Shown one piece after another: positions 1,439 to 18,333 of a DNA stretch of 19,436 nucleotides. The stretch comes from a virus (lineage: Duplodnaviria; Heunggongvirae; Uroviricota; Caudoviricetes), in the IMG/VR virus record IMGVR_UViG_2529292972_000014, one strand, 5' to 3'. Below the pieces are notes generated by a model. That model was not told the origin of the DNA and did no database searches. It saw nothing but the letters and a program-made list of their open reading frames with translations. Within the stretch, counting starts at the first letter, position 1, and each line of letters begins with the position of its first letter. The position numbers were made by a program, and so were the translations under genes.

Positions 1439-1511
1439 CTGGCTGATAATGGACGGTAACAGACCGAGGGAAAGAGAGTGTGCAGCGGCTATTATAGCGC
1501 GGCGATTTTTT

Positions 1512-1574
1512 TGATACCGATTTGCATTTCATTTGATACCGCTGAAAAACGCCGATACGCAACTTATTTGATAC
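1512..1574. repeat. Direct repeats of (T)TTGATAC(C) near the prophage terminus; candidate transposase end-binding sites
   Basis: tgatac at 1512-1517, 1534-1539 and 1569-1574, plus cgatac at 1553-1558, spaced about 16-22 bp, directly read from the sequence. Function inferred by analogy to Mu attR R1-R3 sites, though the motif differs from the Mu consensus. Confidence 0.35.
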
Positions 1575-1596
1575 TAAATCGGCGCTTTTCTTTTGA
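1550..1596. terminator. Possible bidirectional terminator downstream of mom (weak)
   Basis: Inverted repeat cgccgat (1550-1556) / atcggcg (1578-1584) with a 21-nt loop, flanked by an A5 run on the left and a T-rich run (cttttcttttgagtttt) on the right. The large loop makes this weak. Confidence 0.3.
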
Positions 1597-1620
1597 GTTT
1601 TAGAATGAGTTTTTAAGCGC

Positions 1621-2358
1621 TCATTCACTCTCTTTCAAACCAGTTTTAACTGTTTGTGGTTTTGGGTAAGGCTGGACTTTGAATAGCTTTGTGTTGAGGC
1701 GTTTTCTGGCCCTCTTGTTCAGAAACCGGATGTAACGAAACTGTCGGAACTTATGAACACTGGCTCTGTCAATATTAGCCCTCAGATGTTCACCTCGTTG
1801 TCCGCCTCGTTTAATGGCATTCCTGCAAATCTCGTGATACCACTCGCCATCAAGTTCATAGAATATTGATTCATGGCTGCCTACATAATCAAAATTGCTT
1901 GCCTGATACACGACACCAAGACAGCCACAACGCTCATCTGCAAACGACTGAACCCACTGTACCTGCGGATAAAGCTGCCTGATTAGCTTGAGCGCGTAAC
2001 TGATTGCCCTTGATTCGGAGTTTCTCGGCATACAGTCATGCAGCCATAGCCGGTTAAGCTCCATATATTCTCGGTTCTGCGTACCCGTTACGACGCGTGC
2101 ACCACTGTTTGGGTTAAGGGCGTAACCCCATTGCATTACGCCAACAAGTTCCCGTTCTGAAAATATGCCCAGATGAAGGTAGGAGTTATTTACGAAACGG
2201 TGGCTGTAATGTTTATTGACGATGACCAGTCTGGCCAGCCAGCAACTTATTGTCTCAACCCGCAACTCACGGGAGCCATAACCAACGATATTGTCGTTAT
2301 AGCGAATAAGTTCAGGCGTGCTGATGATTCGGGATGTGACTTGCTTTCTGTTCCCCAC
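1621..2358 (-). CDS. mom: Mom-family DNA modification protein (adenine modification, anti-restriction)
   Basis: 245-aa ORF immediately downstream of, and overlapping by 47 nt, a Com-like zinc-finger gene; located after the invertase at the prophage terminus exactly as in Mu. GTG start at 2358 with an aaggaa RBS about 9 nt upstream. Identity rests on context and size, not on a remembered sequence alignment. Confidence 0.75.
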
Positions 2359-2512
2359 GACAGGATTTCCTTGTGTATGTGGGGTGCTCTGTGGCGCTCG
2401 GAGATGTGATTTGATTGAGGGTTTTACAGCGCGGACATTTTACTTCCAGATAACTGAAACTGGCCCGTGCCAGTAGCTTATTGCAGTGTCGGCACCGTAT
2501 GTTTCGATACAT
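2312..2512 (-). CDS. com: Com-like zinc-finger translational activator of mom
   Basis: [18 protein letters not shown]...[10 protein letters not shown]...EHPT closely parallels the Mu Com pattern (IRCKNCNKLL...IRCPRCK...EHPT) as recalled. ATG at 2512 is preceded by an aggagg RBS; the ORF track's longer 2557 start is a TTG. Confidence 0.8.
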
Positions 2513-2555
2513 GACCGCATAACCTCCTGCTTTGTTGTTGATGCCTTTCTCATGC

Positions 2556-2698
2556 AATCGATCGACAAAAACGATCGATTCGATTTGTTTAATTGATACA
2601 ACAAATAGATTGAAAAGTCATCAACAATGATTCAGGGAGGTGATTATTTACTTAAAGAAAACGAAGAGTTAGGTGGTGAAAACGATCATAAAATGATC
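2556..2698. promoter_or_regulatory. GATC-rich palindromic region upstream of com-mom (candidate Dam-methylation-sensitive promoter/operator region)
   Basis: Perfect 9-bp inverted repeat aatcgatcg(2556-2564)/cgatcgatt(2572-2580) carrying GATC at 2560-2563 and 2573-2576. Second palindrome gatcat aaa atgatc (2684-2698) carrying GATC at 2684-2687 and 2695-2698. Mu mom is known to be controlled through clustered upstream GATC sites. Confidence 0.4.
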
Positions 2699-2784
2699 AT
2701 TTTATTGACTTTTTATACAGTGAAGGTAGGATCACGCGTATATGTAGTATGTTTCAAATCAACAGGATACTACATAAAAGTGAA

Positions 2785-2812
2785 ACCCAGCATAGCTGGA
2801 ACTATGCTGGGT
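2785..2812. repeat. Perfect 11-bp inverted repeat (acccagcatag ctggaa ctatgctgggt); stem-loop or dimeric protein-binding site
   Basis: Read directly from the sequence. On the minus strand it is followed by a U-rich stretch (ttcacttttatg), so it could terminate or insulate minus-strand read-through into com-mom. Confidence 0.5.
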
Positions 2813-2923
2813 CAATCTGTAAAAACTTGCATCAATGCTTTACTTCGAGCTCGTGGCGTATCCTATGATATTCCCCGGTCTCCTGTAAAGCAGAGATGCA
2901 TAAAAAGGAGATCTTTATCATGG

Positions 2924-3091
2924 ATGAAAGAGCCTGTTTGCCCTGCCTGTAAGACTCCCTTACAGCTCATCTATCGCCGTTCTCGATCTCAAAATGGCAA
3001 GACATACAAACCCAAAAATGCTTCCTGTTTCAGGATGCTGATATGTCCTGCCTGTTCTCCCAGGAGGGAAAATACACAAAACGTGCATTAA
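2924..3091 (+). CDS. Small zinc-ribbon protein (CPAC...29 aa...CPAC), divergent from com-mom; N-terminal extent uncertain (ORF open from 2627)
   Basis: Two CxxC pairs (MKEPVCPACKTPLQLIYRRSRSQNGKTYKPKNASCFRMLICPAC). aaggag RBS at 2905-2910. Ends in a convergent arrangement with the minus-strand 81-aa ORF across a GC-rich hairpin. Plus-strand position among minus-strand genes makes it less certain. Confidence 0.35.
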   Translation: MKEPVCPACKTPLQLIYRRSRSQNGKTYKPKNASCFRMLICPACSPRRENTQNVH

Positions 3092-3100
3092 CAAACTCAC

Positions 3101-3120
3101 CCGGCAGGGAAACCTGCCGG
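3101..3120. terminator. GC-rich hairpin with GAAA tetraloop between convergent ORFs (candidate bidirectional terminator)
   Basis: ccggcagg gaaa cctgccgg, an 8-bp perfect stem. Lies between the stop of the plus-strand ORF (3091) and the stop of the minus-strand 81-aa ORF (3130). U-rich flanks are imperfect on both strands. Confidence 0.45.
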
Positions 3121-3129
3121 TCGGTATTG

Positions 3130-3375
3130 TTACATCATAGTACCGTCAGTTCCGGGCTGAACCGGCTCTGGTTGCTCTACGGGTTGAGGATCATTTTCCG
3201 TGCTGTTTTCAGCCGGAGAACGGCCAACCATTCGGGCCAGCACTTCATCAACATATGCGTCGATTTGTGCCTCAAAATCCTTGCGAACCTGCGCCTTCAG
3301 CACGCGGTTCACTTCTTCAGAATAAAGTGCCTGTTTGACAAGCTCTTCAGTAACCGTGCCTTTAATCTCTGGCAT
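3130..3375 (-). CDS. Hypothetical 81-aa acidic, Pro/Glu-rich C-terminus protein
   Basis: Strong aaggag RBS 7 nt upstream of the ATG at 3375. Followed by the hairpin at 3101-3120. No family recognised. Confidence 0.5.
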   Translation of the reverse strand: MPEIKGTVTEELVKQALYSEEVNRVLKAQVRKDFEAQIDAYVDEVLARMVGRSPAENSTENDPQPVEQPEPVQPGTDGTMM

Positions 3376-3410
3376 GAATATTCTCCTTTTGCAGGTATAT
3401 TGCCCCGTTA

Positions 3411-3593
3411 TCAGAGCGGGGTCGGGTCGTTTGGGGATGACGGTGCCTGTGCTGTTTTACTGAGTTTTTCAGCTGCCGCATCATCAATTTTACGGCGAAT
3501 ATAATTTCTGATGACCTTATAACCACCGCTCACCAGATATAACGCACTGACCACAGCGCAGAAATAAAGCAGCATTGTATGAACGAATGTCAT
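3411..3593 (-). CDS. Hypothetical 60-aa small membrane protein (single N-terminal TM helix, charged C-terminus)
   Basis: Hydrophobic stretch MLLYFCAVVSALYLVSGGY followed by a basic/acidic tail. Plausible RBS (aaggtaagg) upstream of the ATG at 3593. No family recognised. Confidence 0.4.
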   Translation of the reverse strand: MTFVHTMLLYFCAVVSALYLVSGGYKVIRNYIRRKIDDAAAEKLSKTAQAPSSPNDPTPL

Positions 3594-3661
3594 ATAACCT
3601 TACCTTTGATATTGACTACATAATTCGTTATCGGGTAAAAACATCGAAGCGACTGATAACC

Positions 3662-3686
3662 ACTCCTTCGGGAGTATTTTTATTTT
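3662..3686 (+). terminator. Intrinsic-terminator-like hairpin on the plus strand (actcc-UUCG-ggagt followed by atttttatttt)
   Basis: 5-bp stem with a UUCG tetraloop and a T-rich tail, read directly. Oriented opposite to all neighbouring genes. Confidence 0.35.
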
Positions 3687-3705
3687 CCTTTATGGGTTAG
3701 GTAGC

Positions 3706-3742
3706 TCCCGCCAGCCATATCATGACCGGCGGGATTTTTTTA
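3706..3742 (+). terminator. Intrinsic-terminator-like hairpin on the plus strand (cccgcc...ggcggg followed by T7)
   Basis: GC-rich stem cccgcc(3707-3712)/ggcggg(3728-3733) followed by attttttta. Overlaps the stop codon of the minus-strand 679-aa gene. Confidence 0.4.
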
Positions 3743-5779
3743 TTCTGTTACCGCTTTTTTCACTTCCACCACAATGCTGTCAATCAGCACCGGGTAAGTT
3801 GCATTTTTTGTGATATCCGTTACGCGGAGTTTGTCCACCGGGAAAGTTCCTACTGGTGACTGCGTCAGGGTAAACGCGGCACCATCCTGACCATCAATAA
3901 CCGGAATAACCTGAAGGCTGTTATTTCCTGCAAAACGGAAGGCCAGCGTATGCCATTCATTATCAAATGCACCAAAGGTTCCCAGTTTCTGGTTATTTGT
4001 TGCCACTTTTGCATTGTGGTACATCACATTCAGGTCTTTTGCGTCTGTCTGGATGTAGAACGATGCCAGCAGATTATTCCCTGCATCCCCTGTCAGGGTG
4101 ACACCCTGCGGCAGAGAGGAAACCGGCCAGTAAAGCCCCATGACATACTGGTTTGCCACCAGGTCGCCAGGTACTTTAAAACGACAACTGATTAAACCAC
4201 CATTTTTCAGCAGTTCAGCACCAGTACCGGCATCATGATCCAGATACCAAGATGATTTACCTGTTTCCTTGGTCAGTTTCATTGCCTTACCACCTGTGCC
4301 TCCTGCATCACTGATAATTTCAGCTTTACCGCCAGCCGGCTCCCAGCCCTGGGCTTTCAGATTTCCTTCTGACTCACTGACACGATAAGACAGCAGTGTT
4401 GTGGTTACTGCTTCAGTTTCTGAAGGTGACGGCACTGGTGCTTCAGTTTCAGAAGATGGAACATCGGCTTTTACTGTGGTTCGCCCCGCATGAGTCAGAA
4501 CTGCCGTGGCCAGACGGTCGGAAATAATCCCACGACGTGCCCATGAACTGAAATGGCTGGCCCGGTCCGCAGATGTCCAGGTGGCGGCACTGTTACGCCA
4601 CGTTGAGCCGTAATAACCAATGGATTCAATATCCGGGTCTTCTGCCGGATTGTTGGTGGGTACATTCGCGTCATTTTCATCTGTCATTAATGGAACGAAA
4701 TGAATGTTTTTATCTGTTTTGTTTTTGTAGCCGCCATAGATTGCCTGGTATGCCGGTTCATTTTTCTGTTTCCAGAAATACGTGGTATCGCCACAAATCC
4801 ACGGAACGCCAGCAGCACTGCCACCGGTACACTGTTCCGCCTGTTCAGCCAGGTCTGCGCGGAATTTTTCCACCATCGCCAGAAACAGCGCGGAATGCTC
4901 CGTCGGCTTCGCATCAATATCAAACTCGCCCTGCATCCACACCACAGCAAGCAGGCGGTTTTTCGGGTTCTTCGCCAGTGCCGCTTTTGTCCGGCTGATT
5001 AAGTCCTTATACAGCGGCTTATCCACACCCCAGCGGGCTGAGTCCTCTGAAGCACCCGTGCTGTCACTGTACGTGCCGTCAGCACCCGCCGTGAATGCAG
5101 AACCACCACGGCAGCAGGGAACCAGCAGAATCCCCGCATCTGCCGGAATAAACGGCAGCAGTTTTTTGGCAATGTGAAGCCCCTGACCCACGGTGCCATA
5201 TTGCCCTTTAGCCACATCCGCTTTCGGGTGATTTTTTCCACTCATATCCTGCACATCATGCAGACAGTGGTCGGCCAGAATGATGTCGTTATACTGACAG
5301 GCTTTACCTCCCGGCGTGACTGTACTGCGACGGGCTAACTGCATAATACGCGGTTCGGGGCGGTCATATGTCTCCGGCAGTGGCAGACCTTCACCGTAAG
5401 CCATACCGTTTGACTGACCAGCAAGAACCACCACGTAATACCAGGAAGGGGAGCTGGAAGCAGTTTCATTTCCTGACGGACGGGTATGTGTTTCAGCATT
5501 ATCCCAGTCTGACGGTTCAGCAGTACCGGCAACATCAGCACTTAACGGAATGACCGCACCAATACCCGCTCCGGTAATTTCCACACTCGGATCACCGGAT
5601 ACTGGCCTTACCCACAGGCAATCCCGTGTATTAAAACTGATGAGACAGTCAGCAAATGTCATTCCTCCTTTTGTTTCGGCCGGAGGAAAGGGAGCCTCAA
5701 GAAATGCCGCTGTACCACCGGAAACTTTAACAGTAAAGTTTCCGGGCATTGATGATAGTTGAACCCATTTGGACGTCAT
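3740..5779 (-). CDS. SGNH/SASA-family carbohydrate esterase (sialate O-acetylesterase NanS-p-like) with C-terminal lectin/LamG-like beta-rich domain; phage accessory (moron) gene
   Basis: 679-aa ORF. Motifs YYVVVLAGQSNGMAYGEG (GQSN catalytic-Ser block), VVWMQGEFD (WxQGE block) and a later His-containing block are consistent with sialate O-acetylesterase-type SGNH hydrolases. C-terminal roughly 250 aa is beta-rich and lectin-like. Linker contains a duplicated SETEAPVPSPSETEA segment (direct repeat gcttcagtttc[t/a]gaag about 4410-4456). Confidence 0.65.
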   Translation of the reverse strand: MTSKWVQLSSMPGNFTVKVSGGTAAFLEAPFPPAETKGGMTFADCLISFNTRDCLWVRPVSGDPSVEITGAGIGAVIPLSADVAGTAEPSDWDNAETHTRPSGNETASSSPSWYYVVVLAGQSNGMAYGEGLPLPETYDRPEPRIMQLARRSTVTPGGKACQYNDIILADHCLHDVQDMSGKNHPKADVAKGQYGTVGQGLHIAKKLLPFIPADAGILLVPCCRGGSAFTAGADGTYSDSTGASEDSARWGVDKPLYKDLISRTKAALAKNPKNRLLAVVWMQGEFDIDAKPTEHSALFLAMVEKFRADLAEQAEQCTGGSAAGVPWICGDTTYFWKQKNEPAYQAIYGGYKNKTDKNIHFVPLMTDENDANVPTNNPAEDPDIESIGYYGSTWRNSAATWTSADRASHFSSWARRGIISDRLATAVLTHAGRTTVKADVPSSETEAPVPSPSETEAVTTTLLSYRVSESEGNLKAQGWEPAGGKAEIISDAGGTGGKAMKLTKETGKSSWYLDHDAGTGAELLKNGGLISCRFKVPGDLVANQYVMGLYWPVSSLPQGVTLTGDAGNNLLASFYIQTDAKDLNVMYHNAKVATNNQKLGTFGAFDNEWHTLAFRFAGNNSLQVIPVIDGQDGAAFTLTQSPVGTFPVDKLRVTDITKNATYPVLIDSIVVEVKKAVTE

Positions 5780-5878
5780 AATAATCAGCCTGTTCCTGAA
5801 TAAACTGAATTATCATATCCACAGACCGATAAACGCCATTTTGCGTTAATTCAGTAAAGGCCCAACAAAGGGAGCGTC

Positions 5879-6439
5879 TTATTTTTCCGAAACGCTCGCA
5901 GGATAATAACGATAAAGGGTTGAAAGGCCGATATCAAAAATAAGTGCCACCTGTCTTCGACTGACACCCCCGGCCAGTAAACGCCCGACCTGCTCGTATT
6001 GTTCCTGCGTGAGACGACGGGGTCTGCCGCCGGTTCGTCCCCTTTCACGGGCAGCTGCAAGACCAGCCCGTGTCCGTTCGACAATTAATTCACGCTCCAT
6101 TTCTGCCAGCGCACCCATTATGTGAAAAAAGAAGCGCCCCATGGGGGTTGACGTATCAATGTTGTCAGTAAGACTACGAAAATTTATCCCCTGTTGCTGT
6201 AATTCATCTGTCAGCGCAACAAGGTGGCGCATACTGCGCCCCAGCCTGTCCAGTTTCCAGACCATCAGTGTGTCACCGGGTTTTAGTTTCTTCAGTGCCC
6301 GCTTCAGTCCCGGCCGCTGTGTCGTTTTACCACTCATTTTATCTTCAAAAATCTGCTCACATCCTGCACATTCCAGCGCATTTCTTTGTAAACCTGTGTT
6401 CTGGTCATTTGTTGATACGCGTATATAGCCAATCAGCAT
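5879..6439 (-). CDS. gin: Serine DNA invertase, Gin/Pin/Cin/Hin family
   Basis: MLIGYIRVSTNDQNTGLQRNAL...WKLDRLGRSMRHL...GRFFFHIMGALAEMERELIVERT... is the canonical resolvase/invertase catalytic domain with a C-terminal HTH. Adjacent to a gix-like crossover site and the invertible fibre segment. Symbol gin chosen from Mu-like context; pin is equally possible. Confidence 0.93.
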   Translation of the reverse strand: MLIGYIRVSTNDQNTGLQRNALECAGCEQIFEDKMSGKTTQRPGLKRALKKLKPGDTLMVWKLDRLGRSMRHLVALTDELQQQGINFRSLTDNIDTSTPMGRFFFHIMGALAEMERELIVERTRAGLAAARERGRTGGRPRRLTQEQYEQVGRLLAGGVSRRQVALIFDIGLSTLYRYYPASVSEK

Positions 6440-6493
6440 GTATTTACCTTCCTTAAAAAGAGGTGGAAAGGCCTTTTAAAGCAGATATACGGC

Positions 6494-6519
6494 ATCCCTG
6501 AAACCTCGGTTTACGGGAT
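6494..6519. other. Invertase crossover site (gix/pix-like), left
   Basis: atccctgaaacc tc ggtttacgggat: two 12-bp half-sites in inverted orientation around a 2-bp core, resembling the gix half-site TTCCTGTAAACC as recalled. Confidence 0.7.
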
Positions 6520-6864
6520 ACTGTAAACAGGGCCGCGAATGCCCTGCCATCGAACGGAGCGGCTGTTGCAGCGAATAAACTCGCCACTCCAAGAAATATT
6601 AATGGTGTCCCATTTGACGGAACGCAGGATATAAATATTACATCGGGGATGACGCAGTCTGTGGCTGACTCACGTTATGTTCAAAGCATTCGAAGAGGTT
6701 CAAGGTCAACGATTGGAATGCAATATAATATTTTTGAGGTTCCTGACGGATGCGTACTTACAGGGCTTGATGTCGCTGGTGATGGTAATGCAACGGTAAC
6801 CGCATATTATCGACCTGTTCAGTTTCTGATAGATGGTTCGTGGAAAACAGCTTCCAGCGCATAA
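6508..6864 (+). CDS. Alternative (currently silent) tail-fibre C-terminal segment; no own start codon, expressed only after inversion fuses it to the constant fibre N-terminus
   Basis: Frame open from the crossover site; translates GLRDTVNRAANALPSNGGAVAANKLATPRNINGVPFDGTQDINITSGM...TAYYRPVQFLIDGSWKTASSA, paralogous to residues 178-303 of the expressed fibre. Confidence 0.6.
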   Translation, partial: GLRDTVNRAANALPSNGAAVAANKLATPRNINGVPFDGTQDINITSGMTQSVADSRYVQSIRRGSRSTIGMQYNIFEVPDGCVLTGLDVAGDGNATVTAYYRPVQFLIDGSWKTASSA

Positions 6865-6943
6865 AAGTGCAGTAGTTCAAAAAACAGATTATCTGAATAA
6901 ATATATGATGATTTTGTCTTTTCAACAAAAACAAGGTGAAATA

Positions 6944-7465
6944 ATGGAGCTTATTAACGTAAAACGATATTACCCGGAACACAAACCCTATGGTGAGGAT
7001 GTTCAGTATTTCCAGAGTGAGGACGGAAGGGATTTTTATGAATCTATCCCGCTTTTCACAAAGAAATACAAACTCTGTATTTCGCCTGTAACGGGTATTA
7101 TCTGCTCTGTTGCTGAAGATGTCTCTGCTTTATATCCGGCAGGTTTTACTGTTGTTGAAGTGGACGAACTGCCGGAAGGTGTGAATATTGACGGTAACTG
7201 GCAGTTTTCTGATGGCCTGATATCAAAGGTGCCGGTAAACTGGAAGACGGTTGCTGAAAAGCGCCGCTCATCGCTGCTCCAGGAAGCCAACGAAACTGTG
7301 GATGACTGGAAAACGGAATTAAAACTGGACATGATTAGCGATGAAAATAAATTACAGCTGACGCGCTGGATGGCGTATATCCGACAGCTTAAAGAAATGC
7401 ACTTTAATGATATTGCCAGTGAGGGGCATTACCAGGCGATTCCCTGGCCGGAAAAACCGGAATAA
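6944..7465 (+). CDS. Tail fibre assembly protein (Tfa/U family), belonging to the silent fibre arm
   Basis: aaggtg RBS 7 nt upstream of the ATG at 6944. C-terminus ...QAIPWPEKPE matches the conserved Tfa ending (WPxKPE). The ORF track's longer 6833 start is unlikely. Confidence 0.8.
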   Translation: MELINVKRYYPEHKPYGEDVQYFQSEDGRDFYESIPLFTKKYKLCISPVTGIICSVAEDVSALYPAGFTVVEVDELPEGVNIDGNWQFSDGLISKVPVNWKTVAEKRRSSLLQEANETVDDWKTELKLDMISDENKLQLTRWMAYIRQLKEMHFNDIASEGHYQAIPWPEKPE

Positions 7466-7499
7466 TTCAGAGGGTGCATTCAGCACCCTTTTCTGTGGT

Positions 7500-8411
7500 T
7501 TACACTGAACTTACCGTTCTCCAGGCATTATTAATATAAATCTGAACCGGGCGATAATAGACCCCACCGATATTGTCCGCAGACCGGGAGCCGGTTTCCT
7601 GCACGTTAATTCCGGAAAGCATACAACCGGAAGGTGCGCTGTAATTCCATGACATTTCATTGCCTCCGGGTGAATGATAGCTCTGTGCTCCAAGCTGAAC
7701 ATTCTGTACATACCGGCCATCTGCGGTTGACTGCGTCATTCCTGACGTGATGTTGATATCCAGCGTTCCGTCAAAAGGAACACCATTAATATTTCTTGGG
7801 GTGGCGAGTCTGTTTGCTGCCACGGCGGTTCCACCCGATGGCAGGGCATCAGCAGCCTTATTTACCGTTTCCCGTAAACCGACGTTATCGATAAAAGCGC
7901 CTTTATCCGGAATGTCTGCGCCGTTCTGCTCCCTGCGCAGGTAACGGTTATCACCTTCGCTTTTGCTGTAAACATCCAGATTATTACGGGCGGTTCCCGC
8001 ATTCTCCAGGTCGGCAAGGTTCTGATCCTTCGCCAGAGCATTAACGTCACCGGGACCAAGACTGTTTTTTGTGGCAAGCGCCCCAAGACCAAGATAACCA
8101 CGGGCAAGACGCTGGGCTTCCGCACCGGCATCAGCAATTTCTTTCAGGTTGTTTTTCCGGGAAAAGGCATTCGCAGCGATAATGGCTTTAATGGACAGCG
8201 TAAGCTGGTTTAACTGCGCCTTATCCGGCTGAATACTGGCTTCAGCCAGAATATTCAGCAGTTCGGCCTGGAGAATATTCAGCCAGTCCTGACCAATCCA
8301 GCTGATACCTTTTTGTCCGTCACCTTCGGTAAACCAGGTGGTGGTATTACTCTGCGCCGGTGCCAGCGCAGGCATATTCGCCACGCCGGAATTATTATCA
8401 ACATGGAACAT
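7500..8411 (-). CDS. Tail fibre protein (constant N-terminal part residues 1-177 plus currently expressed variable tip 178-303)
   Basis: ATG at 8411 overlaps the upstream stop by 1 nt (taatg). C-terminus ...GGVYYRPVQIYINNAWRTVSSV resembles myovirus fibre C-termini. The right crossover site lies at codons 177-178. Confidence 0.8.
   Translation of the reverse strand: MFHVDNNSGVANMPALAPAQSNTTTWFTEGDGQKGISWIGQDWLNILQAELLNILAEASIQPDKAQLNQLTLSIKAIIAANAFSRKNNLKEIADAGAEAQRLARGYLGLGALATKNSLGPGDVNALAKDQNLADLENAGTARNNLDVYSKSEGDNRYLRREQNGADIPDKGAFIDNVGLRETVNKAADALPSGGTAVAANRLATPRNINGVPFDGTLDINITSGMTQSTADGRYVQNVQLGAQSYHSPGGNEMSWNYSAPSGCMLSGINVQETGSRSADNIGGVYYRPVQIYINNAWRTVSSV
7869..7894. other. Invertase crossover site (gix/pix-like), right, inside the tail-fibre gene
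   Basis: ttcccgtaaacc ga cgttatcgataa: left half matches the gix half-site 11/12, right half matches the TTATCnnAAACC consensus 9/12. Core ga is the reverse complement of core tc in the left site, as required for inversion. Confidence 0.6.
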
Positions 8412-8971
8412 TAAATATTCTCCTCTTCGTGACTGTTTGCATATACGTAAATAAACGTCTGCCATGCAGGCTTATAACGGTTCAGAATACATTCCAGCGC
8501 ACCGCCTTCATAAATACGCAGCGGCGTGAGAATATCATCCAGCACATTCATATTCCGGTAGCCGGTTTCACTGTTAATCGTGACAATACTGACCCACTGT
8601 GAATCCGGTGATGGCTGAATATCTATTTCATAACCAAACTCTGCCGCAAACCGGATATAAAATTCACGGTTAAGAGAGGGTTTCATCCGGTATTTATTCC
8701 CGGCATAACGCTGACGCTCCTGAATGGTTGCGCCGGTCATATCACATTCCGGTAACCCCAGATAACGCTCCCAGTCTTCCAGCAGCAGACGGGATGAATC
8801 AGGAAAACGTTCTGCCAGCATCTGGTTACCGGTCCAGGAAACACGCTCCGTGGAATGACTGAGGCCCAGGCACAAAGCCGCAAGAACGGATGACGGCCGC
8901 TTATCCCATGCCAGCCCGTCAGGCAGCAACTGCAACAGGGCGCGCTGATGCGGGGTCAGGGTTACAGCCAT
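8411..8971 (-). CDS. Mu gp48-like baseplate/tail protein (DUF2313, YmfQ-like)
   Basis: 186 aa; position between the baseplate J-like gene and the tail fibre gene. Confidence 0.65.
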   Translation of the reverse strand: MAVTLTPHQRALLQLLPDGLAWDKRPSSVLAALCLGLSHSTERVSWTGNQMLAERFPDSSRLLLEDWERYLGLPECDMTGATIQERQRYAGNKYRMKPSLNREFYIRFAAEFGYEIDIQPSPDSQWVSIVTINSETGYRNMNVLDDILTPLRIYEGGALECILNRYKPAWQTFIYVYANSHEEENI

Positions 8972-10047
8972 GTGATTTCCCCCACGGTCAGCAACTCTGT
9001 ATCTCCGGCCATCACGGACTTCAGCGGGCTGCGAACTTCAAAATCCTCCAGTCCTTTCACCCCTGCAACAGCCCGCCAGAATGATGAAGGCAATACAAGT
9101 CCACCCGGCCGCGATTCGTTATAAAGCAGGTCTGTTAATGCCTGTTTTACGGCAGCCTGATTTTCCGGCGTTTTGGGTACAATCCTGATCTCAAACGCCA
9201 CCGGCTTATTGGTCAGCTTAAACACGCTGATTGTCGGCCCAAGTGGCTGACCAACGGGCTGGCCCGTCGCCGGATCATCATGACTGCGGATATAATCCGC
9301 CACCCGCTTCACATCACCTTCTCCGGGGAAAATGTCAGGGTTATTATCCTGAACAAAAGTCACACCAACACTACCCGCCTCAGGCCATTCAGGCTTACAC
9401 CATGCCCGCGTCACGCCCGGTACTTCCCGTGCCCAGCGTTCAAAATCATACTGTGTTCCCCCTGATGGCGGGTTCTGTACCCGGAATACCAGCCTGGACA
9501 GCAACTCCGGCACCGTTTCCACATCCGCACCACCGGTGAGTCCCGTGCCGGTGACCGTGGCTGTCTGGTTGATGCCCGCCTGTGGCGTGATAAAGGACAG
9601 GCGGGTTCCGGTCGGGGTATTTCCAGCGCGCCCCGCACTTTCCGCCTCCACATTAACATTCAGTGTTCCGGCTTTTCCGGTCGCAGAGCCGGTGATGCGG
9701 TACACAACCCCATCGCTTCGCTGAAGGAGTACGCCTTCCGTGATCCCTGCATCCGTGGTCAGCATCAGTTGTACCGGTCCGTCAGCGCGGGAAGCCGGTT
9801 TACGGATGACACCCCAGAATGCGCAGTGTTTCAGGAGTTCGGCTTCATCAGCTTCTGTCGGAATTATCTGCCGGGAGATCCAGGCCAGATGTTCATGCTC
9901 CTGTGCTGACAGACCCGCCAGTGCATACGCAATGGCATTCAGGGTGGTTTCATTCACGCCCGGCTGCGAACCGGGCAGGCGCTGGCTGATATCCTGTTGT
10001 GTCTGTGTGATCAGTTGCGCCAGTGGTAAGGGCTGATAAGGCATCAT
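8962..10047 (-). CDS. Baseplate J-like protein (Mu gp47 / P2 gpJ / T4 gp6 family)
   Basis: 361 aa; conserved synteny after the gp25-like gene; start overlaps the upstream stop. Confidence 0.75.
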   Translation of the reverse strand: MMPYQPLPLAQLITQTQQDISQRLPGSQPGVNETTLNAIAYALAGLSAQEHEHLAWISRQIIPTEADEAELLKHCAFWGVIRKPASRADGPVQLMLTTDAGITEGVLLQRSDGVVYRITGSATGKAGTLNVNVEAESAGRAGNTPTGTRLSFITPQAGINQTATVTGTGLTGGADVETVPELLSRLVFRVQNPPSGGTQYDFERWAREVPGVTRAWCKPEWPEAGSVGVTFVQDNNPDIFPGEGDVKRVADYIRSHDDPATGQPVGQPLGPTISVFKLTNKPVAFEIRIVPKTPENQAAVKQALTDLLYNESRPGGLVLPSSFWRAVAGVKGLEDFEVRSPLKSVMAGDTELLTVGEITWL

Positions 10048-10481
10048 TCCCCCTTCATATCAGCATAAAAAATCATCGGATGTCTGCTTCCGTCCGGCAG
10101 GGTGATTTTCACGGAAAGCGAAAGGCGAGCATGCCCCACACGCATGGCATGACATACCACGGATGTGGCAGCACCGCTTTTATGCAGCCACGCCAGCGCT
10201 TCATCAGCATAGGCCTGTGCACGGCTGACCACGGAGGACAGCGTCTTTTCACGGCTTAACAGCCAGAGACGGGAGCCAACGGGGCGCTCCCGGAAACTGT
10301 CTCCCCACCATCCCCGACGGTCACGGGTGCCGTCAGGGATTTCATCGGAATCCAGCGCCCGCCTGTCCGTAAACAGTGAAATAATGACCGCAGTCAGCAG
10401 GCTGTTATCCGTCAGAAGATCTGCGCCGTTCAGTTGCAGGGAACCGCAACCCTGATCCCAGACGACAGCAATATCAGCCAT
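10044..10481 (-). CDS. gp25/GPW-like baseplate wedge protein (Mu gp46-like)
   Basis: Start taken at the internal ATG (10481), giving 145 aa and an atggctga overlap with the upstream gene stop. The ORF track's longer 216-aa version overlaps the preceding gene. Confidence 0.65.
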   Translation of the reverse strand: MADIAVVWDQGCGSLQLNGADLLTDNSLLTAVIISLFTDRRALDSDEIPDGTRDRRGWWGDSFRERPVGSRLWLLSREKTLSSVVSRAQAYADEALAWLHKSGAATSVVCHAMRVGHARLSLSVKITLPDGSRHPMIFYADMKGE

Positions 10482-11088
10482 TCTCTGGTCCTCCCGTTTT
10501 GCTGCCTTCACCGTTATCGTGATGCACATGACCTGAATAGGTGATCCCGGCAATAACCGCTTCGGACATCGTGAACGTCCCCTGTGATCTTCCGGTGCCG
10601 TCAATGGACACATTGCCTTTGACATGCAGGTTCTTATCCACTGTGACATTACCGGTAAAGTGAGCCTCCGGTGTATCCACCTGAACACCTTCATCGGCGT
10701 AAATCTCCAGCGTCTTACAGGTCACAATGATCCGGCCGTTCTTTGTCAGACGTATACGGTGCCCCTCATGGTGATACACGCCGGTATCTCCGGCGGTAAG
10801 TCCGGTCGGGCGACTGCGGCGGTCTTCCACCACAAGCACCACGGCCTGATCCCGTTGTCCGCCAGCACAGGCCAGAAAAACTTCCGCACCAGGCAGGGGG
10901 ACGCTGATTTGCCCGTACTGCTGGGGGCGTTCAACGTCATCAAAGGTTTCACCATCCATACCGGTGATTTGCACATTCTGGATTTTCAGCGTGTCCGTTG
11001 TGCCGGTCAGTACACCACGCCCGAACAGCAGACGAACACCCCGCATCACGGGGGCCAGAAGGCGGCTGATGACTTCGTCATTCATCAT
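10474..11088 (-). CDS. Baseplate assembly protein V-like spike/hub (Mu gp45-like)
   Basis: 204 aa; N-terminal OB-fold-like region and C-terminal His-rich motif (SGHVHHD), typical of gpV-type spikes. Confidence 0.7.
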   Translation of the reverse strand: MMNDEVISRLLAPVMRGVRLLFGRGVLTGTTDTLKIQNVQITGMDGETFDDVERPQQYGQISVPLPGAEVFLACAGGQRDQAVVLVVEDRRSRPTGLTAGDTGVYHHEGHRIRLTKNGRIIVTCKTLEIYADEGVQVDTPEAHFTGNVTVDKNLHVKGNVSIDGTGRSQGTFTMSEAVIAGITYSGHVHHDNGEGSKTGGPENG

Positions 11089-12202
11089 TGAATTTAATCC
11101 CCTGTTTTTTCATCTGTGCCCGCACGAAGGCGTCCACGTCACCCGCATTTCCGCTTCCGCTGTTTCCCGGCTCTGCCGGAACAATAAAGCCGTCACGGGG
11201 TGCCAGAATCAGACGGGTGGTTTCGCCGTGATTTGCATCCAGCGAAAACTCCACCTGACAGACAAGAAGATCACGCTCTTCCACTCCGGTGCGGGGAGCC
11301 GTGACAGCCGTCAGCAGGTTGATATCCCACAACTGGCCGTTCTCCCGAAACCAGTGCCGCACGGTGGCTGTCAGGCGCACAGAGCGGGCAACCGCCCGGC
11401 GCATTTCCCGGACAGCCCTCTGGCGTGCACCGTCTGCATCAACAGCATGATCCGCCAGCACAATTTTCGGTCTGTAACGGTGGATGGCACTGTCTGTCAC
11501 CGTACCAACGGGTGCGGCCAGCGTTCCGGCTGTCAGTGCATCCCCGGCATGACCACCACCACGCCCGTGCCCCCGTACACGGTATTCACTGTGGCGCAGA
11601 CGGTGATCCACGTTGTGATCCAAATCCAGCAGATTTTCGCCCAGCGTCAGCGTGTCGCCACGCTGACTGCCGGCCTGAGTGAAAACCAGTTCACCGGCGG
11701 CATTACTGGTTACCAGGACGCCTCTGTGTCTCGCGGCCCGTGTCAGCGCATCTGCCACGGTTTCTGAGTTTTCCAGTGTGAAGGTGGAAAAGGGCCGGGC
11801 TGCCGTTGCATCATTTACCTGCCAGCGCACCGTGACCCCGAACGGAGCACACAAATCTGAAGCAATGTGCTCCAGCGTGCGGTTCCTCCACTGGCTGCCC
11901 GGATGAATGGCTGAACAGTCCACCAGGTCACCGGTTTTATCCCGTCCGCTGAGCGTGATCTGAAAACGCGTGGCGCTGATGCGCTGCCGGACCTGATCCA
12001 GCCAGCCAGTGATCACAGGCTGACCGTCAATGCGCAATTCCAGAGACTGACCGGCACGGACGGATGACGGAAGGCGTACACCGGGCATCATTACCCCCAG
12101 TTCAAAGGAGCCCGCCAGATGTTCAAGAGAGCGACGAACACTCACCGTCAGCCAGCCGGAAAAAATCTCACCGCCCAGATACAGTTCAACCCTGCTGCTC
12201 AC
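11078..12202 (-). CDS. Tail/baseplate hub protein, phage late-control gpD-like (Mu gp44/P-like)
   Basis: 374 aa; size and position between the DNA-circulation gene and the gpV-like gene. Confidence 0.65.
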   Translation of the reverse strand: MSSRVELYLGGEIFSGWLTVSVRRSLEHLAGSFELGVMMPGVRLPSSVRAGQSLELRIDGQPVITGWLDQVRQRISATRFQITLSGRDKTGDLVDCSAIHPGSQWRNRTLEHIASDLCAPFGVTVRWQVNDATAARPFSTFTLENSETVADALTRAARHRGVLVTSNAAGELVFTQAGSQRGDTLTLGENLLDLDHNVDHRLRHSEYRVRGHGRGGGHAGDALTAGTLAAPVGTVTDSAIHRYRPKIVLADHAVDADGARQRAVREMRRAVARSVRLTATVRHWFRENGQLWDINLLTAVTAPRTGVEERDLLVCQVEFSLDANHGETTRLILAPRDGFIVPAEPGNSGSGNAGDVDAFVRAQMKKQGIKFNDE

Positions 12203-13556
12203 TAATCACCTCCACTGAATGGCCTCCGGGAATGAACAGCGGATCAACAATACCGTTACGGCGCACAAAACGTTGCCAGCCGGTACTGTTCCCGGTGGCA
12301 CGGTACAGGGTCACCAGTGCAGGCTCGGTGGTACGTACAGTCACTACTGTTGCACCGGGTAGCTGAACTCCCCGTGTATTCAGATCCTCTGTCAGTGCCA
12401 GTCTGGCATCACGAAGCGTCAGCGCCGTGGCGGTATACCCCTGCCCGGACAGTGTCATCACCTGCCGTTCGAGCGCTTCGCTTAAGTCACGGTTAATGCG
12501 CTGAAGATCAACTGAACTTTCCAGCCAGACAGGCCAGGTACGGTGGGCTGCGTCACTGTCCGGCAGGGTTTCCTGACTGAGAACCTGATCCAGCAGTTTT
12601 CCCACGGTCTGTGCCTGGGCCACCACGGCAGCACTCTGCATTACCGCCCGTATCAGACGAATATTCTTTTGTGCTGCCGGTGTCAGACCGATGAGAGTCT
12701 GCGGATTATCCTGCTCATCCAGCACGTAACGCAGGGAAGATAATGTCCTGTACAGTTGCGGCATTCCCTGAGAGAAGGCGGATGTCGTCCGGCCGATACT
12801 GCCACCGGGCCGGGTATTCAGGCCTCCTGAAGACAGTGACGGCAGCGATGGCAGGGTGATCAGGGCACTGAAAAGCCCCGCAAAAGATGAGGCCATGCGG
12901 GAAGGTGCTGTCAGTAATGCCGTGGCATTCCCTTTCAGCGCCGTGAACGTGGCAGTAAAGGCACTGATATCCTGTACAATCCCCATGCCGGAAACGGCAT
13001 TTTCCAGGGCGGACACCTTATCGCTGATGGTTTCGGTCATTGCCTGGACATCGTGCATTCCGTCAGAAATCACCGTCCAGCCCGCTTCCAGGGTTTCAAA
13101 AACCTTCCCGAGCGCGGTGGTACTCTTCTGCTCCAGAATGGCGGCCGTGTCCTGTGTGACAGCAGGTGCGGTATCATCACTTACCGGCGTGACATTAATG
13201 GTGAACTCAACCACGCCCTGTTCAGCAGCGTTATAACGACTTTCAAAGCTGTTTATCAGCACATTTAACGTGCCGTAATCCGGGTGAAGCAGCTCCCCGG
13301 CACCGGGAGCACGAAGGGCATCACGCAGACGATTTCGCTGTGTCTGAACATCATCCCCCATCACAAGTACACTGAACGTAAATTCAGCCAGTTTAGGTCC
13401 CAGATCGTCTGCACCACCGGTTTCCCGTAACGGATATTCCCGACGGACAATGTTTCGCCCGCCACGTTCGCGCTGCTCACGCCAGACGAGGAACGGCACA
13501 CCACGGAACGCACCACGACCGTCACCAGAGGCCATAATTCCCTCCGTTCCAGACAT
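12186..13556 (-). CDS. DNA circulation protein (Mu gp43/N-like)
   Basis: 456 aa, directly downstream of the tape measure gene in Mu order. Start may be a later in-frame ATG to reduce the overlap with the tape measure. Confidence 0.6.
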   Translation of the reverse strand: MSGTEGIMASGDGRGAFRGVPFLVWREQRERGGRNIVRREYPLRETGGADDLGPKLAEFTFSVLVMGDDVQTQRNRLRDALRAPGAGELLHPDYGTLNVLINSFESRYNAAEQGVVEFTINVTPVSDDTAPAVTQDTAAILEQKSTTALGKVFETLEAGWTVISDGMHDVQAMTETISDKVSALENAVSGMGIVQDISAFTATFTALKGNATALLTAPSRMASSFAGLFSALITLPSLPSLSSGGLNTRPGGSIGRTTSAFSQGMPQLYRTLSSLRYVLDEQDNPQTLIGLTPAAQKNIRLIRAVMQSAAVVAQAQTVGKLLDQVLSQETLPDSDAAHRTWPVWLESSVDLQRINRDLSEALERQVMTLSGQGYTATALTLRDARLALTEDLNTRGVQLPGATVVTVRTTEPALVTLYRATGNSTGWQRFVRRNGIVDPLFIPGGHSVEVISEQQG

Positions 13557-15597
13557 TCACATCCAGTCCGTGACCGGACGTGTCATCAATATCAATACTG
13601 CGAGCCTGCCACCCTTCCGGGGCAACCAGCTCCACACGGGCAGAGGCTTTTTGTACCGCCTGTCCACTGCTTTCATCATCACTGCCCCGTAATTTCTGCC
13701 AGGCTTCAGTCAGCCATCCCCCCAGATAGTTACCGAGATAGCTGCCCACCGTAGAACCAATGGCAATCCCCACAGGTCCGGCTGCCGCCCCCAGCGCACC
13801 ACCGGCAATACTGCCTGCAAGAGAGCCGACCGCTTCTCCCTTGTCTGTGGCACTGGCGCTGCCATCCAGCAGAACCGGGGCTGCCATCGCGCCAGCCCAC
13901 AGGGCACCTCCACCCAGCCGGCCGGCCAGTCCACCGGCACTGCGGAAAAAGCCGGAGAAACGCCCCAGCCCCATGCGGCTACCGACAGACGAAAGTAACC
14001 CACCGGCGCGCCCCATCATGCGCCCCCAGAACCCTGCCCCACCAGAAGAGGGAGACGGTGGCACTGGGGACGGTGGCAGGGGAGGCGTGACCGGTCTTCC
14101 GCGCCCCGGTCCGCGTTTCCTGCGGCCCCGCCCCTGACGTCCGCCTGAGGATGTATCGGTCGCGCCGGTGCCGGACAGTCCTCCTGTGGGCCAGTTTGTT
14201 ACAAGTACTGGCTGAACGGCTGCCGGATTTACCCCGGTAAGAAAGTTTATAAAACGTTGCCCTCGTCCCTGAGATGTGCCTGGTGGTGTTCCGGCCGGAG
14301 GAGAGCGCCGGAAAGGTGAGGTCAGGAAGGCCGCCGCTGATAATCCGTATCCCAGCAATGCAGCACCCGGACGTATAATCCCCGTTCCGACAGCCCGCGC
14401 CATTTTCAGGGCACGGGTGGCGAGATACATGTACAGCAGGTATTTCGCGGCGGTCTGTGCCCCCTGACCAATGCGATCCAGCGCATCACCATAGCCCGCA
14501 TCCCGCAGAGCCTGAAGCGTGTCGCGTACCTTTCTGATCGCCTGATAAAACCCAGTCACTGCATCACGGGCATACTCAAAGCCCTGGTTCATGGCTGATG
14601 CCGTGCTTTCCGCCAGGGAATGGTAACTGCCATCAGATTTGGCACTGTCAACCCATGAAAGAAATCCCCTGAGATTACCCTTCAGTTTTTCAAATGGCCC
14701 ACTGTCCATCACATCCCGGGCAAACTGGTCCCAGACGTCACCCATCATGGCCGTCAGGCCACTCCAGGAATTCATTGCGTCCTTTTGTGCTCCCCTGGCC
14801 TGTTCCGCCAGCGTCTGAAATAACAGGCGAATACTGTCCGGCCCAAGCAGCCCTTTTTCACCAAGTTTTCTGACCACTTTCTGGTCCACACCCAGACGAT
14901 CAGCCAGCACGCGGTAGGCATTAATGCCGTAGGTGGCAAGAATATTTGCATCCGCCGCCTGAATACTGCCTCTTGCATACATCTGTTTCAGTTGCAGGGA
15001 TGCCCCCTGTGCATCGGACAGTGACCAGCCGCCCACGGCACCCTGATCCTGAAGCATGGTGACAAAATTTCGGGCCTCCCTGTCACTCATACCAAAGCCC
15101 AGACTGGACGTATATTCCTGCATGACGCCAGCCAGCCCCCAGGTGGTTTCCTTCGCATTCTGTATTGCCCACCTGCGGACATCATCAGTTTTCGCCCGAT
15201 CCCCTTTGTAAAGGGAGTTCAGGCGAATCATATAGGTTTCCATCTCCGCTGCCGGGCGAATAAATCCCCGGTTAAAGCCATATACAGCAGCACCACCGGC
15301 CAGCATTCCGTAAAGATTGCTGATCCGCCCGATGGTGCCGGTAATACTGCCCTGAAGACGGTCAAAATCAGAAGTGACATGGCGGATACTGCCCCGCACC
15401 CCGGCCAGCGTGCGCTGCATCCTGCTTCCGAGTACATCTGTTTCCTGCCCGGCACGGCGGGCAGCATTTCCCAGGCCACCCAGCCCCGCCTGGCCGGAGC
15501 GTGAGAATGCCCCCAGCTCCTGTGACCACTGGCGGGATTTGGCTGAGATATTGCCGAGCAAATCAACTATCAGAGATGCTCTGAGATTTCGGGCCAT
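13522..15597 (-). CDS. Tail tape measure protein
   Basis: 691 aa; helical N-terminal half, Gly/Pro/Arg-rich low-complexity region, Gly-rich hydrophobic C-terminal region; position after the tail assembly chaperone. Confidence 0.8.
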   Translation of the reverse strand: MARNLRASLIVDLLGNISAKSRQWSQELGAFSRSGQAGLGGLGNAARRAGQETDVLGSRMQRTLAGVRGSIRHVTSDFDRLQGSITGTIGRISNLYGMLAGGAAVYGFNRGFIRPAAEMETYMIRLNSLYKGDRAKTDDVRRWAIQNAKETTWGLAGVMQEYTSSLGFGMSDREARNFVTMLQDQGAVGGWSLSDAQGASLQLKQMYARGSIQAADANILATYGINAYRVLADRLGVDQKVVRKLGEKGLLGPDSIRLLFQTLAEQARGAQKDAMNSWSGLTAMMGDVWDQFARDVMDSGPFEKLKGNLRGFLSWVDSAKSDGSYHSLAESTASAMNQGFEYARDAVTGFYQAIRKVRDTLQALRDAGYGDALDRIGQGAQTAAKYLLYMYLATRALKMARAVGTGIIRPGAALLGYGLSAAAFLTSPFRRSPPAGTPPGTSQGRGQRFINFLTGVNPAAVQPVLVTNWPTGGLSGTGATDTSSGGRQGRGRRKRGPGRGRPVTPPLPPSPVPPSPSSGGAGFWGRMMGRAGGLLSSVGSRMGLGRFSGFFRSAGGLAGRLGGGALWAGAMAAPVLLDGSASATDKGEAVGSLAGSIAGGALGAAAGPVGIAIGSTVGSYLGNYLGGWLTEAWQKLRGSDDESSGQAVQKASARVELVAPEGWQARSIDIDDTSGHGLDVNVWNGGNYGLW

Positions 15598-15723
15598 ACT
15601 TACTGCTTCGTTCTGATGATTTTTTCTGTCTGTCGGCAGTGCCGGTAAAGTTGCGACAGGGGGAGGTTAAGCGCCCATTCCGGACCGCTTTTTGTCACCA
15701 TCCCCAGGATAATTGCCGCTTCT

Positions 15724-16200
15724 TCAATCTGATCCCGACACTGCGCCTGATCGCCCCCGGTCAGCTGCCAGCTTTCCGGCAAGCGCGGTATCCAGCAGGC
15801 TGACCGCTGCCATCAGGCGGGAGAGATCGCGCTCGCTTAACTGTCCAATCTGACGGGGTGACAACGGACCTTCAATGTCTCCCACTGCGGCAATCTGACG
15901 GCGCAGCAGTGCAACACCGCGTAACGACGGAGACGCTATCAGCATCGGGCCATTGTTTGTCTCCACCACGCGCTCGGCTTCTGCTTCTGCGTCAATACTG
16001 TCTTTCGCTGTCAGTTCCCGGAACGTGACACGATATTCACGGGTCTCACCAAACGGCAGACCATCAAGCAGATCCACATATCCCTTTGCCAGTTGCTCTG
16101 TCAGCCCGGCAGTGCGTGGATCAGCCCCCTCAAGTGCTTCCCGGATTGCCTCCATCACGGCTGCCTCGGAAACTGCCGTTTTTTTCTTACGTGTGGTCAT
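15724..16200 (-). CDS. Tail assembly chaperone (Mu gp41-like)
   Basis: ATG at 16200 with an agga RBS; acidic protein between the tube and tape measure genes. A 60-aa ORF (15600..15782) overlaps its 3' end in another frame. Confidence 0.5.
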   Translation of the reverse strand: MTTRKKKTAVSEAAVMEAIREALEGADPRTAGLTEQLAKGYVDLLDGLPFGETREYRVTFRELTAKDSIDAEAEAERVVETNNGPMLIASPSLRGVALLRRQIAAVGDIEGPLSPRQIGQLSERDLSRLMAAVSLLDTALAGKLAADRGRSGAVSGSD

Positions 16201-16214
16201 TTTATTTTTCCTGA

Positions 16215-16580
16215 TCACTGAACACGGGTACTGGAGGCGCTGGCGAACTTCACGGAGATCTCCCCGCCACCGTCAAGCGAGGCCGGTTCACTGCTCCAGG
16301 CCTTCGTCATCATGTGGACTTCGCCGGTATCCGCCACAAACTCGATAGTGACCGCAGTCCAGTTGTTGATTTCATCGGCGGCTGGTGAACCTTCTCCGCC
16401 TGCCGGAAATTTGCAGTCCAGCGTCGCTTCACGTGGTTTCTGGCGGTAACCATAGACTTTCGCGCCTTTCACCACTTCACGTTCAAAACCAGACGGAGAA
16501 AATGTAGCCCCCTCAAGCGTCTCGTATTCCTGACCGTTCACACGGATAGTGGCCGTACCCTGATACTGTTTTCCGCTCAT
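16215..16580 (-). CDS. Tail tube protein
   Basis: 121 aa, immediately downstream of the sheath gene; size and position typical of Mu-like tube proteins. Confidence 0.75.
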   Translation of the reverse strand: MSGKQYQGTATIRVNGQEYETLEGATFSPSGFEREVVKGAKVYGYRQKPREATLDCKFPAGGEGSPAADEINNWTAVTIEFVADTGEVHMMTKAWSSEPASLDGGGEISVKFASASSTRVQ

Positions 16581-16588
16581 GCCTTACC

Positions 16589-18091: not shown

Positions 18092-18333
18092 TGCGGTTTC
18101 TCCTTATCGGATGCCGGTTGGGCGACCGGTTTTTCTGTCGCAGTCGTTGCATCCGCAGATACAGCCGGAGCCTCTTCAGCGGCTTTTTCAGCCTGAATGA
18201 CATCGCCGTCATCAAGACGCCGACACCAGAACGGCGTAAAGGGCTTTTCCTCCCCCTCCTGTGCCAGCGGGCGCATTGTGTCGGGATCACGAATCAGGCG
18301 TCCCGGCGCGGGTTTGATAAAGATGGTTTTCAT
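18088..18333 (-). CDS. Mu gp38-like protein (DUF2635-type small protein)
   Basis: 81 aa; stop overlaps the sheath start; synteny. Confidence 0.55.
   Translation of the reverse strand: MKTIFIKPAPGRLIRDPDTMRPLAQEGEEKPFTPFWCRRLDDGDVIQAEKAAEEAPAVSADATTATEKPVAQPASDKEKPQ

Follow-up and report, generated by a model that had tools for sequence, protein, structure and literature searches.

What is an esterase of the kind carried by Shiga toxin (Stx) phages doing beside the tail-fibre switch of a Mu-like transposable prophage, and what is its N-terminus for? The question arises from one gene in the IMG/VR virus record IMGVR_UViG_2529292972_000014 (Caudoviricetes), a stretch of 19,436 nucleotides which is called the window here. 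The gene encodes the protein known as ECs_4993 (ECs4993) in prophage Sp18 of Escherichia coli O157:H7 Sakai. The best overall explanation, which we consider very probable, is a NanS-p enzyme resident in a Mu-like prophage and released by lysis, with an N-terminal module of the family phrog_4772 instead of the DUF1737 of its lambdoid relatives. The main new point is this N-terminal module; the host phage type also differs from that of known NanS-p. The gene itself has been in the databases since the Sakai genome, often correctly named, and its enzyme and lectin parts are ordinary for NanS-p. A search of titles and abstracts, with incomplete coverage of the key papers, found no paper on ECs4993 or on a Mu-like NanS-p.

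The span 3740-5779 holds a single long open reading frame (ORF), the minus-strand frame of 679 amino acids (aa), and its product is 100% identical to ECs_4993. The Sakai annotation gives it as 'hypothetical protein', and other records call it 'sialate O-acetylesterase' (many) or 'DUF6645 domain-containing protein'. The exact protein sequence was present in at least 999 contigs. Many public records show a 669-aa product that starts at M11 (window 5749-5779 region); since W5 is invariant across the family of N-terminal domains described below, M1 is likely the true start.

An initial annotation, made from the nucleotide letters, had proposed a NanS-p-like SGNH/SASA esterase, and comparison with known families and structures agrees with it. 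SASA (PF03629) was matched at aa 116-312 (E 6.5e-12, 46 bits against a gathering cutoff of 24.8), and aa 104-428 align with the solved structure of E. coli NanS/YjhS (3pt5, E 1.9e-118). The SGNH blocks, defined as in NanS by GQSN with the nucleophile Ser, QGE, and RASH or RSSH with the His (PMC10462455), are intact: GQSN from aa 121, QGE from aa 283 and RASH (block IV) at aa 406. The first two stand in the forms GQSNGM and WMQGEFD, which are the blocks that had been picked out by eye. The SASA domain is 80-81% identical to NanS-p of Stx phages.

The C-terminal part, first described as beta-rich and lectin-like, was matched by DUF6645 at aa 524-642 (E 2.4e-69), and aa 459-674 align with the C-terminal lectin-like domain of NanS-p (6yp6, E 1e-111). 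Its identity to the lambdoid copies is 78-83%. Four aromatic residues were proposed as the sugar site of the phi24B C-terminal domain (PMC10462455), and all four are kept here (Y545, Y550, Y575, F646). The duplicated Ser/Thr/Glu/Pro linker was also as stated, with PSSETEA at aa 441 and PSETEA at aa 452. The window protein is an intact member of the NanS-p family, an SGNH/SASA esterase with a lectin-like domain. From these motifs and alignments it is predicted, with high confidence, to be an active sialate O-acetylesterase, and by analogy with its paralogues of about 80% identity it would act on Neu5,9Ac2 and mucin.

The N-terminus is different. An extra domain of roughly 110 aa had been expected; the extra region exists, but it consists of a folded domain of about 75 aa and a linker of about 37 aa. 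DUF1737, which had been suggested for a profile search, was absent: Pfam gave no match to it in the window protein even at E up to 1, while the lambdoid control (TL-2011c) gave E 3.5e-18. Residues 1-112 are 14-19% identical to lambdoid N-termini, and DNA similarity to lambdoid nanS-p starts at window 5441, around aa 113. The model of the N-terminal domain is all-beta with six strands (predicted local distance difference test, pLDDT, 80), and does not have the one alpha-helix and three antiparallel strands typical of the DUF1737 anchor. This small beta-barrel contains no histidine and is therefore not a cupin enzyme of the metal-dependent kind.

An exhaustive HMMER scan with this domain covered 1.84 billion representative proteins and returned five matches. 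Four were NanS-type esterases with the same N-terminal domain or fragments of it (two truncated records), and the fifth, a long repeat protein, was judged unrelated. A profile search collected 32 proteins of two kinds: N-terminal parts that E. coli, Shigella and Salmonella esterases of the NanS type carry, with domain identity of 29-61%, and stand-alone proteins of 77-80 aa, almost all from Salmonella. Homologues of the domain were found in these two forms only. W5, P33 and W56 are invariant in the family, and the W, the P and a W-x-R are shared with phrog_4772 proteins. When the family alignment was compared profile to profile with ORF168 of the Dickeya phage LIMEstone1, the match had 97.1% probability (E 6.1e-11); ORF168 is a member of phrog_4772 (E 1.5e-37), whose core members are 78-aa proteins of Ackermannviridae. 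These profile matches place the domain in phrog_4772, an uncharacterised family. The phrog_4772 proteins (LIMEstone1 ORF168 and the 77-80-aa proteins of Salmonella prophages) have the same length as the N-terminal domain; they stand alone just upstream of a separate partner, whereas the domain of the window protein is covalently fused to its partner.

The partners of the small gene are diverse. In Salmonella prophages with Mu-order tail modules the stand-alone gene comes right after the invertase or the fibre chaperone, a position equivalent to the 5' end of ECs4993, and the window protein's N-terminal domain appears to derive from the small gene at this position. Its downstream neighbour varies between these prophages. 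One is a 183-aa ILEI-domain protein followed by DUF1353, and the nearby DUF1353 gene matches a PHROG annotated as tail assembly chaperone; another is a protein of 332 aa that comes with a DUF4376 fibre chaperone of its own. The ILEI partner showed no detectable sequence similarity to the 332-aa partner or to the 'knob' partner of LIMEstone1. The latter is ORF169, annotated as 'tail needle knob' and 'confirmed structural protein', and ORF168 lies 8 bp upstream of it, behind an annotated late promoter. In the viral contig L007 the partner is an unfused esterase 16 bp downstream, which has SASA, DUF6645 and a C-terminal extension and lacks the N-terminal domain. In contig L006 the fused form, of 784 aa, is found in a Mu-like tail module, behind its genes for fibre and chaperone. 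The series from the stand-alone gene with another partner, through the stand-alone gene with an esterase, to the fusion makes a Rosetta-stone argument that the module works with its downstream partner. From these gene orders it reads as a small conserved module whose heads, glycan-binding or structural, can be exchanged and are either encoded beside it or fused to it.

A separate observation concerns the Salmonella esterase, which bears an extra C-terminal module of about 100 aa (L006:11990-12337). This module and the C-terminal part of the 332-aa partner (L014:8297-9295) are homologues (E 3e-7), and both terminate in G-x-DGK-x-W; the two proteins, otherwise unrelated, share the same slot.

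The Mu-like prophage context, another claim of the initial annotation, was supported by sequence and gene content. Window 1493-19415 is 99.97% identical to Sp18, and beside Gin and Mom, Pfam identified Mu Gp37, Gp44, Gp45 and Gp48, baseplate J, DNA_circ_N, tape measure and tail sheath. The genes follow the order gin, esterase, DUF1378, DUF826, a 154-aa ORF on the opposite strand, com, mom and prophage end. In Stx phages the order is stxAB, nanS-p, DUF1378, DUF826 and holin. The shared order means that the esterase is part of a three-gene cassette common to both phage types. DUF1378 is about 51% and DUF826 38-44% identical to the lambdoid counterparts; taken with the 78-83% of the SASA and C-terminal domains, these values indicate that the transfer of the cassette was not recent. 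With blastn, the region of DUF1378, DUF826 and the 154-aa ORF matched nothing in the phage collection beyond two Mu-like inserts, so the origin of the cassette cannot be dated by DNA similarity.

A second Mu-like lineage (L018), with an esterase 66% identical to that of the window, has the same order of gin, esterase, DUF1378 and DUF826. In strain RM9245 the cassette lies in a Mu-like prophage without gin. It follows that the cassette is linked with the right end of Mu-like phages and not with the switch itself; the gene does adjoin gin, as first noticed, and only the tie to the fibre switch has to be given up. The 154-aa ORF, between DUF826 and com, has a weak zinc-ribbon-like C-terminus; it accompanies the cassette in those Mu-like copies of E. 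coli that have com-mom at their end, and is frameshifted in RM9245. Where Sp18 has com-mom, L018 carries a C5 cytosine DNA methylase (L018:12792-13844), which would give this end of the phage a different anti-restriction module.

There were 348 phage records with a homologue, and nearly all were Stx or lambdoid phages, which fits the statement in the initial annotation that such esterases are known as cargo of lambdoid Stx prophages. The full-length form occurred in only two of the 348, in both cases inside an 'inserted Mu-like phage'. Among phage records the Mu-like context is thus as unusual as had been supposed, but it is not a single event: the segment coding for the N-terminus (at least 95% identity) was present in 205 of the 5426 complete E. 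coli genomes, about 4%. In transposable Mu-like prophages of the Sp18 type, the esterase gene is stably resident.

What the enzyme may do is suggested by its relatives. A role proposed for NanS-p enzymes is to assist enterohaemorrhagic E. coli in feeding on mucus sialic acids that are O-acetylated. The lambdoid enzymes of EDL933 and O104:H4 are active on Neu5,9Ac2 and mucin, and the lysogen grows on them (review PMC8065619). According to a 2026 preprint, gp84 (NanS-p) of phage phi24B is a capsid decoration protein by means of a DUF1737 hexamer; the DUF1737 anchor binds the hexon centres, and gp84 is later self-processed at its linkers (bioRxiv 10.64898/2026.04.10.717836). In the window protein no signal-peptide-like stretch was seen (maximum Kyte-Doolittle value 0.85 with a 15-residue window, starts covering aa 1-74), a check that had also been proposed at the outset. 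The absence of a signal peptide means that the enzyme must exit the cell through phage lysis, free or on particles. Once outside, the esterase would strip the sialic acids of mucin glycans of their 9-O-acetyl groups, and the lectin-like domain would aid it by binding carbohydrate. At its N-terminus the phrog_4772 module stands in place of the DUF1737 capsid anchor of the lambdoid enzymes.

We tentatively suggest that the new N-terminal domain docks the enzyme onto the Mu-like virion, which would be a swap of anchors. A wider form of this proposal, offered with a little more reserve, is that NanS-p is a portable virion decoration, made of a lectin and a receptor-destroying esterase, which swaps only its N-terminal anchor between phage morphotypes: DUF1737 for lambdoid capsids, and phrog_4772 for the Mu-like virion (capsid or baseplate). 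The family phrog_4772 might then be a general adaptor for esterase, ILEI and knob heads in Mu-like prophages and Ackermannviridae. Several points weigh against the overall explanation. Gene neighbourhood is indirect evidence, and non-structural cargo, too, is classically found at the right end of Mu-like phages. The window protein's N-terminal domain, when used by itself, matched phrog_4772 weakly (E 0.004). The full-length AlphaFold model, with 19 close homologues, has a mean pLDDT of 54 and is confident in the C-terminal domain only; so poor a model serves neither for the catalytic geometry nor for searching by fold. The ECs4993 copy is known from sequence alone.

The reading that competes most closely takes the protein as pure lysogenic-conversion cargo, soluble in the cytoplasm and released by lysis only, which feeds the surviving lysogens because it renders O-acetylated sialic acids usable, with the N-terminal domain as an inert relic of a fusion to a small gene already resident there. 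We regard it as a serious possibility that falls somewhat short of even. It matches the published model for lambdoid NanS-p (PMC8065619), agrees with the lack of a signal peptide, and suits a gene at the prophage end beside com-mom, a typical site for cargo. The many paralogues of O157 strains would also fit a nutritional gene dosage, with up to 13 places per genome matching a 7.5-kb query when matches of the flanks are included. However, the N-terminal domain is kept between Mu-like lineages even where full-length identity of the esterases is only 66%, and also across genera, with 29-38% identity to the Salmonella domains and with W5, P33 and W56 invariant. Such conservation across lineages and genera argues for selection on the domain. 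Moreover, the lambdoid counterpart, once thought to be pure cargo, proved to be a structural decoration protein (bioRxiv 10.64898/2026.04.10.717836).

It is unlikely that the N-terminal domain is an extra carbohydrate-binding module, a small jelly-roll or cupin, which widens the glycan specificity and is not a virion anchor. A small beta-barrel fold without histidines would be suitable, and the partners are related to glycans (ILEI, lectin-esterase and knob proteins). But none of the known carbohydrate-binding modules matched its structure significantly, the only similarity being to PA14 domains at a template modelling (TM) score of about 0.3, and stand-alone 78-aa versions without an enzymatic partner domain are common.

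Still less probable is a tail-associated enzyme that, in the manner of the SGNH esterases in certain coliphage tailspikes, deacetylates O-acetylated O-antigen or capsule and so helps adsorption or the exclusion of superinfecting phages. Such a role for NanS-p has already been put forward (PMC8065619), the gene comes after the tail-fibre and invertase module, and the Salmonella partners of the N-terminal domain include the protein with a DUF4376 fibre chaperone, with the DUF1353 gene of the tail-chaperone PHROG nearby. The catalytic domain, however, shares about 80% identity with enzymes of demonstrated activity on sialic acid and about 65% (estimated from the alignment) with chromosomal NanS, and because of this close similarity to sialate-specific enzymes an action on surface glycans is less likely. 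Neither Pfam nor PHROG detected elements of fibre or spike trimerisation or of a beta-helix, and the E. coli copy is without the extra C-terminal module of the Salmonella version. A tailspike or fibre protein with chance resemblance to esterase motifs, the outcome that had been named as fatal to the esterase assignment, had one weak PHROG match to a 'tail protein' family (E 4.4e-05) and can be dismissed, as NanS and NanS-p structures account for aa 104-674 (E 1e-111 to 1e-118), the SASA match is above its cutoff, and there was no beta-helix match in Pfam or PDB.

The window protein can be compared with three other known systems. NanS-p of lambdoid and Stx phages has the same SGNH blocks, sugar-site aromatics, flexible Ser/Pro-rich linkers, and DUF1378 and DUF826 downstream, and differs in having DUF1737 at the N-terminus in place of the phrog_4772 mini-cupin. 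Its host element is a lambdoid phage, where it lies in the late region, downstream of Q/stx and ahead of the lysis genes, between stx and the holin gene; the window copy belongs to a Mu-like transposable myovirus and lies after gin and before com-mom. Chromosomal NanS (YjhS, 3pt5) has the same catalytic fold and motifs. It is a single-domain protein, periplasmic and in the nan regulon, whereas the window protein, encoded by a phage, lacks a signal peptide and has additional domains at both ends. The haemagglutinin-esterases of influenza C and some coronaviruses carry on the particle an SGNH 9-O-acetyl-sialate esterase together with a jelly-roll lectin, a pair that binds and destroys the receptor. 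For the window protein, whose display on a virion is a proposal, this is a working analogy only.

Two mosaic genes bear on the relation between the Mu-like and lambdoid copies. A chimeric nanS-p was identified in a draft genome (L021:608-2539; GCA_012426925.1, contig AASMET010000054.1). Its 5' part of about 760 nt, including DUF1737, is 94-100% identical to the lambdoid TL-2011c type, and the remainder matches the window copy at 99-100% identity and leads into the right end of the Mu-like type, with DUF1378, DUF826, com and mom. Such a chimera implies that a lambdoid prophage and a Mu-like one underwent homologous recombination, and probably also a chromosome rearrangement. The other mosaic is the Mu-like copy that the Stx phages JNE082796 and JNE122137 carry as an insert (L001:12001-14043). 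It is 98-100% identical to the window in the N-terminal and esterase domains and 86% identical in the C-terminal domain (window 3740-4400), and its DNA from about nt 1400 to the 3' end is generally nearer to a lambdoid copy (86-99%) than to the window copy (70-95%). This pattern in the C-terminal domain looks like gene conversion. Together the two mosaics mean that nanS-p paralogues swap sequence between unrelated prophages.

An Sp18-type prophage adds one nanS-p locus to the O157 strains that carry such prophages, and the Mu-like copy is a substrate for recombination between prophages that are otherwise unrelated. With a different, conserved N-terminal module, it is also a natural experiment on the role of the N-terminus. 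If docking to Mu-like particles is true, the display of a mucus-directed enzyme would be a selected and transferable phage trait and not a peculiarity of Stx phages, and phrog_4772, a family of Enterobacteriaceae prophages and Ackermannviridae, would gain its first function. The features of the window are collected in Table 1.

Table 1. Features of the window that bear on the esterase gene and its surroundings.
Feature	Position	Strand	Basis
NanS-p-type sialate O-acetylesterase coding sequence, 679 aa, ATG start, = ECs_4993 of Sp18	3740..5779	-	ORF list, Pfam, PDB, Sp18 comparison
N-terminal domain, aa 1-75, mini-cupin beta-barrel of phrog_4772 (by profile), in place of DUF1737	5555..5779	-	profiles, model
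Linker 1, aa 76-112, low-complexity	5444..5554	-	sequence comparison
NanS-type SASA/SGNH esterase domain, aa 113-435	4475..5443	-	Pfam, PDB, motifs; block definitions PMC10462455
Linker 2, aa 436-458, duplicated PS(S)ETEA motif	4406..4474	-	sequence
DUF6645 lectin-like jelly-roll domain, aa 459-679	3743..4405	-	Pfam, PDB, motif comparison
DUF1378 small membrane-type protein, 60 aa, cassette partner	3411..3593	-	Pfam, gene order
DUF826 protein, 81 aa, cassette partner	3130..3375	-	Pfam, gene order
154-aa ORF, phrog_26524, conserved with cassette	2627..3091	+	PHROG, gene order
com (translational activator of mom)	2312..2512	-	mapped from RefSeq annotation of identical prophage
mom (DNA modification)	1621..2358	-	Pfam, annotation mapping
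Right end of Mu-like prophage, three TTTGATAC repeats	1489..1600		similarity to other genomes from 1488-1493
Gin-type serine invertase, 99 bp upstream of esterase gene	5879..6439	-	ORF list, Pfam
Invertible tail-fibre segment	6502..7886		182-nt inverted repeats 6502-6683 and 7705-7886

The prophage end interrupts a gene for a LysR-family regulator (893-1438, minus), which adjoins a gp25/TssE-like gene (499-900). None of the 5426 complete E. coli genomes had a prophage at this insertion site, and in different genomes the prophage end abuts different host genes; an unshared insertion site is expected of a transposing phage (PMC7430833). The Mu-like copies of RM9245 and L018, too, have type VI secretion genes as their insertion sites. 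Close to the prophage end, inside some 80 bp (window 1500-1580), TTTGATAC is repeated directly three times, and these copies are probably the transposase binding sites of the right end.

Promoter-like sites were no commoner in a consensus scan than in shuffled sequence (5 against 8.0). The same scan gave no terminator-like site on the strand of the gene between gin and the esterase, which says little on expression. Just 3' of the esterase stop codon, at window 3700-3745, there is a G+C-rich hairpin (cccgccagccatatcatgaccggcggg, plus strand) followed by seven T. The consensus terminator scan does not list it; by its form it looks like a candidate intrinsic terminator, one that would act on plus-strand transcripts running towards the esterase gene from the opposite side.

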